25,948 nucleotides of DNA, taken from positions 1 to 25,948 of IMG/VR virus record IMGVR_UViG_3300044267_002764; one strand, 5' to 3'. Position 1 is the first letter of the stretch; every line of letters begins with the position of its first letter. The stretch comes from a virus (Duplodnaviria > Caudoviricetes). A model generated the notes under the pieces. That model was not told the DNA's origin. It ran no database searches and was given only the letters and a program-made list of their open reading frames with translations. A program made the translations under genes and the position numbers. Below are positions 3,205-14,786 of this stretch, piece after piece.

Positions 3205-3470
3205 ACGGAGTGAACGCCGGGTAGACACACCCTTCTTGGAGGCAGACTTCGGGTTCCCGGCCCGCTCGATTCTATCACGCACGCGGATATCGCAGGTTAA
3301 ACCTGCCATTCTGGCTGACCCCAACACGGCGGACACCATTGTGGAAGGGGCGACATTTGCACAGACGGCGCGCACAACTTCTCCCCCACTAAAATCATAA
3401 GGGTCAATCCACGGCGACACTTGTTGTGTTTGCACGTTATCAAAGCCCCGGTAATCGAATAAGGTATCCA

Positions 3471-13234: not shown

Positions 13235-13498
13235 ATGATGTGTCCAGTTTGCGGGGCAAAAACAAAGGTGGTGGCTTCTCGAAGCATTGCTAAACCAGGC
13301 AGAGGATGGTCCGTAAGCTTGGCTGACAAGGTTGTCGGTTGGTACACTAAGGACTTTATAGTCCGAAGACGGCGCTGCACTGAATGCTCATTCAGCGACC
13401 ATACAGTCGAGATTTTTACTGACGACGTGAAAGGGCTCGTAAAAGAGTCCATAGACGGGCACGCGCCCGAATACTTAACAACAAAGGAGAAGAGATGA
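13235..13498 (+). CDS. NrdR-like N-terminal zinc-ribbon protein (no ATP cone)
   Basis: MCPVCG..TKVVASR...VRRRRCTEC....T.E. Confidence 0.75.
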   Translation: MMCPVCGAKTKVVASRSIAKPGRGWSVSLADKVVGWYTKDFIVRRRRCTECSFSDHTVEIFTDDVKGLVKESIDGHAPEYLTTKEKR

Positions 13499-13881
13499 AT
13501 AGAGTCATTTTGACTGGAAACTTGGGCCAGAAGCCTGAGATTAGAAAGGCCAACTCTGGTATGGCCATTACCAATCTTCGGATTGCAACCAACGAGCGCG
13601 TCAAGGACGGCGACCAGTACAAGGACCACACTGAGTGGCACACTGTAGTTGTCTTCGGCAAGCAGGCTGAGAACTGCTGCAACTTCCTCGACAAGGGGTC
13701 TAAGGTTGGGGTTGAAGGAAAGATTCGCACTCGCGAGTATCAGGACAAAGAAGGCAACAATCGCAAGAGCACAGAGGTTGTTGCAGATCGTGTCGAGTTT
13801 CTGAGCAGGCCAGTGAATGGCGTCTCTCAGAGTCAGCCTCAGTCTGGATACCAGGCGAACGACGAAGAGATTCCGTTCTAG
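13495..13881 (+). CDS. ssb: Single-stranded DNA-binding protein
   Basis: NRVILTGNLGQKPE, TEWH.VV.FGKQAE, KGSKV.VEGKIRTR, acidic tail DEEIPF. Confidence 0.95.
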   Translation: MNRVILTGNLGQKPEIRKANSGMAITNLRIATNERVKDGDQYKDHTEWHTVVVFGKQAENCCNFLDKGSKVGVEGKIRTREYQDKEGNNRKSTEVVADRVEFLSRPVNGVSQSQPQSGYQANDEEIPF

Positions 13882-13889
13882 GAATCGAA

Positions 13890-13963
13890 TGGGGTGAGGC
13901 GTCACAGGCAGACGTACCGGGTTGTTACCCCGGCTGTTGTAGGTTCGAGTCCTACCGCCCCAG
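13890..13963 (+). tRNA. tRNA-Asn(GTT), CCA not encoded
   Basis: Acceptor TGGGGTG/CGCCCCA-G; anticodon arm ccggg-TTGTTAC-cccgg; T arm gtagg-TTCGAGT-cctac; D arm atypical (A at position 8). Confidence 0.85.
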
Positions 13964-13980
13964 CTTTTTGAAATCTAATA

Positions 13981-14102
13981 TGGGGTGATCCACTGTGGGA
14001 ATGTGGCTGCGCACTGACTTAGTCAATCAGCGATACCGACTGACTTAAGGTATTGAAAAGCGCAGGGCTTAGGCCATGCAGGTTCAAATCCTGTCACCCT
14101 TT
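13981..14102 (+). ncRNA. tRNA-like RNA with a 47-nt insert in place of the anticodon loop
   Basis: GGGGTGA/TCACCCT acceptor; ccac/gtgg D stem; ctgcgc/gcgcag stem; ggc-ttag-gcc variable arm; cagg-TTCAAAT-cctg T arm. Confidence 0.7.
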
Positions 14103-14111
14103 ACCTTTATA

Positions 14112-14281
14112 GGGGATGTGGCGAAATTAGTAAACGCGGCAAAGAATGACCTGCGACCTGTGGGGTATACACCTGGGTAGGCAACCAAGAACGATCAACT
14201 TGGCGTGGAATAGATTCTTGCTGGCTCATGTGGCTTTTGCTGGCCCATGTGGCTTTGGGGGTGCAAATCCCCCCATCCCTG
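14112..14281 (+). ncRNA. tRNA-Leu-like RNA with expanded anticodon and variable regions
   Basis: GGGGATG/CATCCCT acceptor; TG-GCG-AAATTAGTAAA-CGC D arm; ggggg-TGCAAAT-ccccc T arm; about 170 nt in total. Confidence 0.7.
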
Positions 14282-14297
14282 CTTTTTAGGAGAAACA

Positions 14298-14480
14298 ATG
14301 CCAATCTATGTTTTTGAATGCAATGCATGCGGCAGGATCGCCGAGGTGCTTCAGAGCTTTGCTGACCCTTGGCCAGACTGTGCCAAGTGCGAAAAGCAGA
14401 TGAAGAAGAAGCCTGCTCTCACAAGCTTCAGCCTTAAGGGCGATAGCTGGGCGAGGGACAACTACGGACTGAAGAAATGA
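14298..14480 (+). CDS. FmdB-family zinc-ribbon protein (60 aa)
   Basis: MPIY.FEC..CG...CAKC...F.LKG..W...Y; AGGAG-ATG 14298. Confidence 0.85.
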   Translation: MPIYVFECNACGRIAEVLQSFADPWPDCAKCEKQMKKKPALTSFSLKGDSWARDNYGLKK

Positions 14481-14786
14481 TTACCGCATCGCATCGATCT
14501 TCAGCTTTAGAAGATCATTCTCGCGCTTCACGTAATCAACCTCAACCTTCAAGGCAGAGACTTCGGTCATCAGTTGTATGATTTGCTCAAGGTGCTCATC
14601 GCGCTCTTGCTCAAGCTTCTCGACCCTCTTGATGAGGTCGTCTCGATACAGCGTCTGCTCAGCCTTTTCTTCGACCTGCTTCTCTCTCTTTTGCTTCAAC
14701 ATGAACTCGTAAAACTTAAACGCACCAGCACTGAACACGCCTGTAACAGCAGCGACGATTGCAGCAGTGGTGGTCGGTTTATCCAC
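14481..14786 (-). CDS. N-terminal TM plus coiled-coil protein
   Basis: Hydrophobic AAIVAAVTGVFSAGAF followed by a heptad-rich charged region. Confidence 0.75.
   Translation of the reverse strand: MDKPTTTAAIVAAVTGVFSAGAFKFYEFMLKQKREKQVEEKAEQTLYRDDLIKRVEKLEQERDEHLEQIIQLMTEVSALKVEVDYVKRENDLLKLKIDAMR

Follow-up and report, generated by a model that had tools for sequence, protein, structure and literature searches.

A tRNA-shaped element with a forked anticodon arm in a marine phage, tentatively read as a non-decoding tRNA look-alike

A fragment of a marine phage genome carries a tRNA-shaped element, here called E1 (13981 to 14102, coding strand), which has a Leu-type tRNA body in which the anticodon loop is replaced by a fork of two hairpins. 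We tentatively read E1 as a non-decoding tRNA look-alike that would be processed as tRNAs are, a reading to which we give somewhat less than an even chance and which leans, by analogy, on the precedent of E2, a second and larger tRNA-like element (14112 to 14283, + strand) that starts ~10 nt after E1 and that comparison with relatives marks as a conserved, non-decoding RNA derived from tRNA-Leu. The window, i.e., the whole stretch of DNA that was analyzed, is an IMG/VR virus record of 25,948 bases, estimated to be 36% complete, and its gene content is that of a phage replication and recombination module, with two helicases, a primase, a single-strand DNA-binding protein (SSB), RecE-like and RecT-like proteins, and a methyltransferase.

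A tRNA body with a forked anticodon arm

The minimum-free-energy fold of positions 13981 to 14102 is a cloverleaf of -42.8 kcal/mol (z = -2.5, with 2 of 200 shuffles folding as well), which bears out the acceptor, D, variable, and T arms recognized in the original prediction. The acceptor stem pairs 13981 to 13987 with 14095 to 14101 and carries a U.U and a G.U at its top, the D arm (13990 to 14006) has a CCAC/GUGG stem and a loop containing GG, the variable arm (14066 to 14075) reads GGC-UUAG-GCC, as in a long-variable-arm (Leu-type) body, and the T arm (14078 to 14094) reads GCAGG-UUCAAAU-CCUGU. Taken as a whole, E1 has a four-arm cloverleaf with a UUCRANY T loop and the D-loop GG; it has no 7-nt anticodon loop with U33 on a 5-bp stem, the stem at this position closing 47 nt.

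Three other results bear on this shape. In intron mode, ARAGORN called E1 at 95% of its default threshold, and 372,579 shuffled bases yielded no calls. The covariance model R1, built from E2, gave E1 25.4 bits (E about 1e-4), with the genuine tRNA-Asn of the window at 26.0 bits and the next-best match in the window at 8.9 bits, and the alignment of R1 to E1 covers the whole tRNA body while skipping the insert. An exact 9-mer repeat within 47 nt, as found in the E1 insert, has by our own arithmetic an expectation of about 0.003. Together with the fold z-scores of the cloverleaf and the anticodon arm, these results indicate that the tRNA shape of E1 is real and above chance.

Standard searches tell less. 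The search with ARAGORN suggested alongside the original prediction missed E1 in default mode and found it only in intron mode, and neither E1 nor E2 was detected by ARAGORN in bacterial mode or by Rfam. At the gathering score, tRNA-Asn was the sole Rfam match and E1 was unmatched; in the search of 471 nt, the tRNA family (RF00005; threshold, 29 bits) did not match E1 even at E up to 10. At this relaxed cutoff, positions 13850 to 14320 returned, besides tRNA-Asn, weak chance-level matches to blv_FSE, Tymo_tRNA-like, and YrlA and no hammerhead or other ribozyme family. By eye, a GAAA adjoins the closing stem of the insert and there is no CUGAUGA box.

The forked anticodon arm (14007 to 14065, + strand) consists of a 6-bp stem, CUGCGC/GCGCAG, that closes the 47-nt insert (14013 to 14059). 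Folded alone, it forms the stem and two hairpins with a z of -3.2, and 2 of 200 shuffles were as good; the insert without its closing stem folds more weakly (z = -1.8; 9 of 200 shuffles as good). Hairpin 1 (14015 to 14025, + strand), UGAC-UUA-GUCA, overlaps the first ACUGACUUA copy, and hairpin 2 (14031 to 14055, + strand) is a 7-bp CGAUACC/GGUAUUG stem capped by an 11-nt loop, GACUGACUUAA, in which the second copy is displayed. By inspection, the GUCA of hairpin 1 could alternatively pair with the UGAC of the second 9-mer copy. The landmarks of the original prediction, i.e., CTGCGC at 14007 to 14012, GCGCAG at 14060 to 14065, the 47 nt between them, the pair of 9-mers, and the TTGAAAA end, were all verified in the sequence. 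Its two-hairpin insert holds as well, with the proposed ATACC/GGTAT pairing lying within hairpin 2, while its CTGA/TCAG pairing gives way to the UGAC/GUCA of the minimum-free-energy fold, to which it is an alternative.

The 9-mer ACTGACTTA occurs exactly twice, 26 nt apart, at 14013 to 14021 and 14039 to 14047, and both copies contain the Leu-type CUUAR (CUUAG and CUUAA). Elsewhere in the window it shows no enrichment (4 matches with no more than 1 mismatch versus 4.5 expected), and a search of the window for its complement as an antisense target, again at up to 1 mismatch, found none. The insert had no significant similarity to any sequence compared. Its 3' end, TTGAAAA (14053 to 14059, + strand), was singled out by ARAGORN and an in-silico deletion series as the sole stretch that would yield a canonical 7-nt loop (U33, anticodon GAA, and A37), given a hypothetical removal of 14013 to 14052.

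The remark in the original prediction that the element is Leu-like receives some support. A 22-mer spanning the variable arm and T arm of E1 was matched exactly in only two places among 185,579 bacterial and archaeal genomes, each of them a bacterial tRNA-Leu(GAG) gene, which suggests that the 3' half of E1 is tRNA-Leu-like.

Several other assignments were considered and rejected. For a tmRNA with a tag peptide in the E1 region, ARAGORN called none at default settings and a "permuted tmRNA" only at an 80% threshold, the tag frame of which sits in E2 and is broken in relatives by a 2-nt indel. The YrlA Y RNA (RF02553) reached 13.2 bits (E 9.7) versus a gathering score of 69, over a match (13935 to 14006) that runs from the end of tRNA-Asn into the start of E1, and the Rfam check proposed with the original prediction, Y RNA and tmRNA models included, gave no family match for E1 at the gathering score. 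Finally, MAFFT placed the 5' ends of tRNA-Leu genes on the GGGAATGTGGC of E1. We set this alternative parse aside because a 10-of-11 match is expected, by our estimate, about once among the position pairs of the 471-nt region.

The tRNA slot and its occupants

The tRNA slot that contains E1 is bounded by the SSB gene and a zinc-ribbon gene; within it, E1 follows a tRNA-Asn(GTT) gene and precedes E2. The SSB gene (13495 to 13881, + strand; PHROG 44 single-strand DNA-binding protein, E 9.4e-49) encodes a C-terminal end of ...DEEIPF, and its stop codon is 9 nt from the start of the slot. The first cassette, tRNA-Asn(GTT) (13890 to 13964, + strand; called by ARAGORN, Rfam tRNA 47.5 bits), is genuine and is the sole ordinary tRNA of the slot by both programs; a gap of 16 nt separates it from E1. 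The zinc-ribbon gene (14298 to 14480, + strand; Pfam Zn_ribbon_8, E 7e-11), which is conserved in relatives, forms the downstream edge, and its ribosome-binding site, GGAG, is immediately 3' of E2. No promoter-like or terminator-like sites were called on the + strand near the slot, and positions 13400 to 14600 had no match among phage GenBank records.

Searches based on the SSB gene provided 24 viral and 80 metagenome loci related to this one (104 in all). We inspected the DNA 3' of the SSB stop codon in 23 of the viral and 32 of the metagenome loci and ran ARAGORN in intron mode on all 104. No relative of E1 was found by inspection (0 of 23 and 0 of 32, respectively) or by ARAGORN intron mode (0 of 104), three E1-specific patterns had no matches in viral contigs, and an insert-free E1 allele, sought as the E1 flanks with a 5- to 35-nt gap, had none in metagenome contigs. 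The original prediction would have been in difficulty if a relative had a normal tRNA of the E1 body at this site; no such relative was found, which does not in itself speak for the prediction. The tRNA-Asn(GTT) gene was called in 15 of 23 related viral loci, and it is the only tRNA of a near-complete relative (70,768 bases, 98% complete), where no look-alike is present. Since the occupants differ across the loci of relatives, we regard the slot as a site of interchangeable cassettes. In four related loci, the slot contains a GC-rich hairpin with a 7-bp stem (GCGGGGT...ACCCCGC) and, after it, a run of T (about 3394 to 3440 in L005, and also in L006, L153, and L156); it stands alone or after tRNA-Asn, is terminator-like, and may be another alternative occupant.

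A second 22-mer, from the T arm and acceptor of E1, matched 119 viral stretches, which are mostly tRNA-Pro, and none is E1-like among the matches listed. Oddities of other kinds came up as well. Two IMG/VR loci found with the T-arm pattern (L074 and L143) have a normal T arm and acceptor and a middle unlike a standard anticodon arm, and may be a further look-alike. A 96-nt gene in L252 (401 to 496) has a tRNA-Leu-type 5' end and a long variable arm and is called tRNA-Ile(GAT) by ARAGORN, an odd pairing of body and anticodon. Eight loci (L040, L058, L060, L065, L091, L097, L114, and L118) and their duplicates have tRNA-Pro 3' halves without a matching 5' half, and such lone halves are typical of phage attachment sites in tRNA genes.

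The population of the phage itself could be sampled in seawater metagenomes. Among the 24 runs listed with window DNA, 10 contain at least half of the sampled words, and none of the 24 is an RNA run. E1 is covered with no differences by contigs in five runs (X2, X5, X8, X9, and X10) and, with 1 difference, by a pair of overlapping contigs in X11; a contig from X7 shows 5 differences, located no more exactly than within 13960 to 14300. The identity of E1 across runs indicates that the DNA is real and the phage population uniform and does not speak for selection, and several of the runs may be the window's own source.

The same contigs reveal how the slot changes. tRNA-Asn and E1 begin with the same 9 bases, ATGGGGTGA (13889 to 13897 and 13980 to 13988), and an X11 contig joins 13890 to 13979, so that exactly the 88 bases between the ATGGGGTGA copies are gone and E1 directly follows SSB. 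E1 is thus found without the preceding tRNA-Asn and acts as a cassette of its own, and the cassettes of the slot seem to be lost and gained by recombination at the shared acceptor-stem sequence. Other contigs lack both E1 and E2 (13969 joined to 14294 and 13970 joined to 14289, in X11 and X9). As strains without the two elements co-occur with those that have them, E1 is dispensable.

E2, a neighboring tRNA-Leu-derived RNA

E2, which the original prediction does not list, was found in 10 of the 104 loci (L002, L003, L007 to L009, L151, L155, and L158 to L160), where it directly follows SSB with no intervening tRNA-Asn; besides the window copy, it lies at 3403 to 3553 in L002, 1743 to 1893 in L007, and 1024 to 1172 in L155. 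Its body is of the tRNA-Leu type, and its insert is about 72 nt in relatives. RNAalifold folded the four sequence variants (alignment A2) into a cloverleaf in which the anticodon position has a 5-bp stem and the insert forms two hairpins, and with a 3-bp extension this structure is paired in 164 of 164 cells (41 pairs in 4 variants). Three pairs change on both sides (columns 32-131, 55-66, and 81-93), two of them in the insert hairpins and one in the anticodon-position stem, and two further pairs alternate between G-U and Watson-Crick. The covariation score was reached by 5 of 500 shuffles, and sliding the partners lowers the pairing to 35 to 57%. Covariation over just four sequences is suggestive and is not proof.

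The names that ARAGORN gives E2 in intron mode vary: Lys(CTT) in L002 and L155, Glu(CTC) in L007, and His(GTG) in the window. The base that turns CTT into CTC partners a compensating change in the stem, so the supposed anticodon of E2 is a paired strand that varies between relatives. The GTG call makes use of a 19-nt tandem duplication in the variable-arm region (14218 to 14255), by which ARAGORN was misled to tRNA-His(GTG); this duplication is lineage specific, being absent from the relatives and from one co-occurring X7 contig.

Searching other phages with the 5' end of E2 gave 17 hits, comprising 5 E2 copies, 1 non-tRNA, and 11 tRNA genes, 10 of which are tRNA-Leu. Those tRNA-Leu genes have A73 in 10 of 10 cases and CCA in 9 of 10, and E2 has C or G at position 73. 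E2 also has no D-loop GG, and three variants have G at T-loop position 55. A conserved, covarying insert and the lack of a stable anticodon point to a non-decoding RNA. On comparative sequence evidence, E2 is a tRNA-Leu gene remodeled into a conserved, predicted non-decoding RNA, and the case for a new RNA family is stronger for E2 than for E1. The two inserts have no detectable sequence in common by blastn-short, and R1 skips that of E1, which places E1 outside the E2 family. What would link the two elements, by analogy, is a shared design (long-variable-arm body, anticodon-position stem, and a pair of hairpins) and their adjacency.

Readings of E1 and comparison with known systems

As a non-decoding look-alike, E1 would be transcribed together with its neighbors and cut from the SSB-tRNA transcript as tRNAs are, its tRNA body acting as a stable carrier for the fork. 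Host RNase P and the 3'-end enzymes would release it, given that the features which they recognize (the acceptor, the T arm, and the D-loop GG) are intact. Unspliced E1 would be unable to read codons. Its working part would be the fork, with two displayed ACUGACUUA copies that each hold a Leu-type CUUAR loop sequence, and the partner bound by the fork would be a protein or an RNA, possibly a host factor that checks the anticodon loops of tRNA-Leu. Against the look-alike reading, E1 is a singleton among the 104 loci and in four exact-pattern scans, so its insert shows neither covariation nor signs of selection. We also count against it the U.U and G.U at the acceptor top, the lack of an Rfam tRNA match, the dispensability of E1, and the fact that an in-silico spliced form passes ARAGORN.

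In a special case of this reading, which we think very improbable, the fork is bait: two imitations of a Leu-type anticodon loop that soak up an anticodon nuclease or another enzyme that inspects tRNA-Leu. Phage tRNAs are known to counter tRNA-cutting defenses, CUUAR is present in both 9-mer copies with one of them displayed in the 11-nt hairpin loop, and the 3' half of the E1 body is Leu-like. Neither hairpin, however, has a 7-nt loop or a 5-bp stem of the anticodon type, the E2 insert contains no anticodon-like loop, and we know of no phage-defense nuclease specific for tRNA-Leu. A decoy function of E1, including the role that the original prediction proposed against anticodon nucleases, synthetases, or RelA, is speculation.

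Two other explanations compete with the look-alike. E1 might be a decoding tRNA from which a small intron is removed by an unknown route, which we consider improbable. In one form of this idea, 40 nt (14013 to 14052) would leave at 31/32 and the loop UUGAAAA (Phe-GAA) would remain; in a second and less likely form, 14016 to 14055 would leave between U34 and A35, joining ACU to AAAA (Leu-UAA). ARAGORN in intron mode does call a tRNA-Phe(GAA) with a 40-nt intron at 90 to 95% of threshold, and deleting 14013 to 14052 in silico yields a sequence that passes its default as tRNA-Phe(GAA); seven other split points reached 92 to 97%, close to the score of the E1 body alone. The 34/35 model has a U before the 5' cut and a G as the last intron base, as group I introns do, at the classic tRNA-Leu(UAA) intron site. 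Nevertheless, 40 to 47 nt is far short of any group I or group II core, no Rfam family (Intron_gpI included) was matched even with E up to 10, a (3-4-3) bulge-helix-bulge motif is missing from the fold, and the location is 31/32 and not 37/38. A canonical 37/38 intron is absent since the would-be position 33 after the stem is C or A and not U. A Phe anticodon on a long-variable-arm body would make an abnormal tRNA, the Leu model has C33, and by our estimate about two in three random inserts would contain a U33/R37 loop by chance. The search for RNA ligase or endonuclease genes suggested with the original prediction came back empty: no RtcB, RNA-ligase, or splicing-endonuclease domain was found in the window fragment, in a 47%-complete relative, or in a 98%-complete relative (PF01974 in 0 of the 3 records), although the host might supply such an enzyme. 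For E2, the corresponding intron calls can be shown to be artifacts. Unexplained introns in phage tRNA genes are described in one report, on Lak megaphages (PMC6784885), which makes the idea of a phage tRNA intron not absurd; nothing here favors an intron over the alternatives. The original prediction had left the choice between an intron and a non-decoding mimic, and of these the mimic fits better in view of the E2 precedent, the intron finding neither canonical features nor, in the three records searched, splicing genes to support it.

E1 might instead be dead, a tRNA gene of the Leu type in which slippage or tRNA-gene recombination scrambled the anticodon region and which now rides as a functionless passenger in a recombination-prone slot. 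This is a serious rival, possible if still doubtful, because the slot duplicates and recombines and E1 is a singleton with a weak acceptor top. It would explain why E1 has no relative in the 104 loci, and the 9-mer repeat resembles a local duplication; E2 of the same lineage carries its fresh 19-nt tandem duplication, missing in one co-occurring strain, and cassette ends recombine, as in the 88-base deletion between ATGGGGTGA copies. The imperfect acceptor stem, the unmatched Rfam tRNA model, and the existence of E1-free strains are of a piece with decay. Against a relic, E1 retains an intact T loop (UUCAAAU), its D-loop GG, and each of the four body stems, the insert and stem fold better than shuffles (z = -3.2; 2 of 200), and its neighbor of the same design, E2, is clearly under structural selection. 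Outside the 9-mer, the 26-nt units agree by our own count at 4 of 17 positions, so the insert is no simple recent tandem duplication.

The look-alike reading can be set beside several known arrangements. In the engineered "tRNA scaffold," a term from biotechnology, the anticodon stem of a tRNA carries a foreign structured RNA, which the cell processes and protects like a tRNA. E1 has the same layout, but the scaffold is a laboratory design whereas E1 is natural, with its processing and stability predicted. Group I introns of bacterial tRNA genes, such as that between U34 and A35 of tRNA-Leu(UAA), are about 200 nt or more and contain a catalytic core (P3 to P8). E1 shares with them an insert in a Leu-type anticodon loop and, in one split model, the U and G at its borders, but at 40 to 47 nt it has no core. 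YrlA-type Y RNAs, which also occur in phages, are non-decoding and contain a tRNA-like module, with the RNA ends opposite the acceptor-like end; in E1, by contrast, the RNA ends form the acceptor stem.

The species I and II RNAs of phage T4 have tRNA-like folds. They are stable, are encoded beside tRNA genes, and derive from the same primary transcript as the tRNAs (PMC2330249). By that description, E1 is likewise a putative extra RNA gene next to phage tRNAs but keeps a full cloverleaf. "Enigmatic" tRNA introns of no known intron class were reported for Lak megaphages (Devoto et al. 2019, PMC6784885). These are short inserts in the anticodon region of phage tRNA genes, identical across samples and present or absent by strain (PMC6784885), in all of which they resemble E1. 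The likeness is again one of description: the Lak inserts were assigned with tRNAscan-SE run in eukaryotic mode, and a named anticodon is left without them, whereas E1 has no canonical split, and the Lak phages are 540-kb gut phages whereas the E1 phage is a marine phage of roughly the 70-kb class. With respect to whether removal restores a named anticodon, one E1 removal gives Phe-GAA, and no insert-free alleles were found in metagenome contigs. By description, the Lak tRNA inserts and the stable RNAs of the T4 tRNA cluster come closest to E1. Our literature search listed no paper on short inserts outside group I in the tRNA genes of marine phages.

The usual view of phage tRNA genes is that they help with codon usage or stand in for host tRNAs cut by defense systems. 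In the small slot described here, a normal tRNA has two tRNA-derived RNAs as neighbors, neither able to decode as it stands, and one of them, E2, is clearly kept by selection. The slot is also a compact test system for whether phage tRNA inserts are spliced out or kept. A wider proposal, which we find rather unlikely, is that this marine phage group uses tRNA bodies as carriers, with the anticodon arm swapped for folded cargo RNAs (E1 and E2) that are released by the host and do not decode. If true, such carrier RNAs would be an undescribed class of phage small RNAs that arises through the remodeling of tRNA-Leu genes, and the cargo of E1 would be a doubled Leu-anticodon-like motif. If the E1 and E2 RNAs are made and stable, phage tRNA genes would be raw material for new small RNAs, and tRNA finders would undercount such RNAs, as both elements were missed in bacterial mode.
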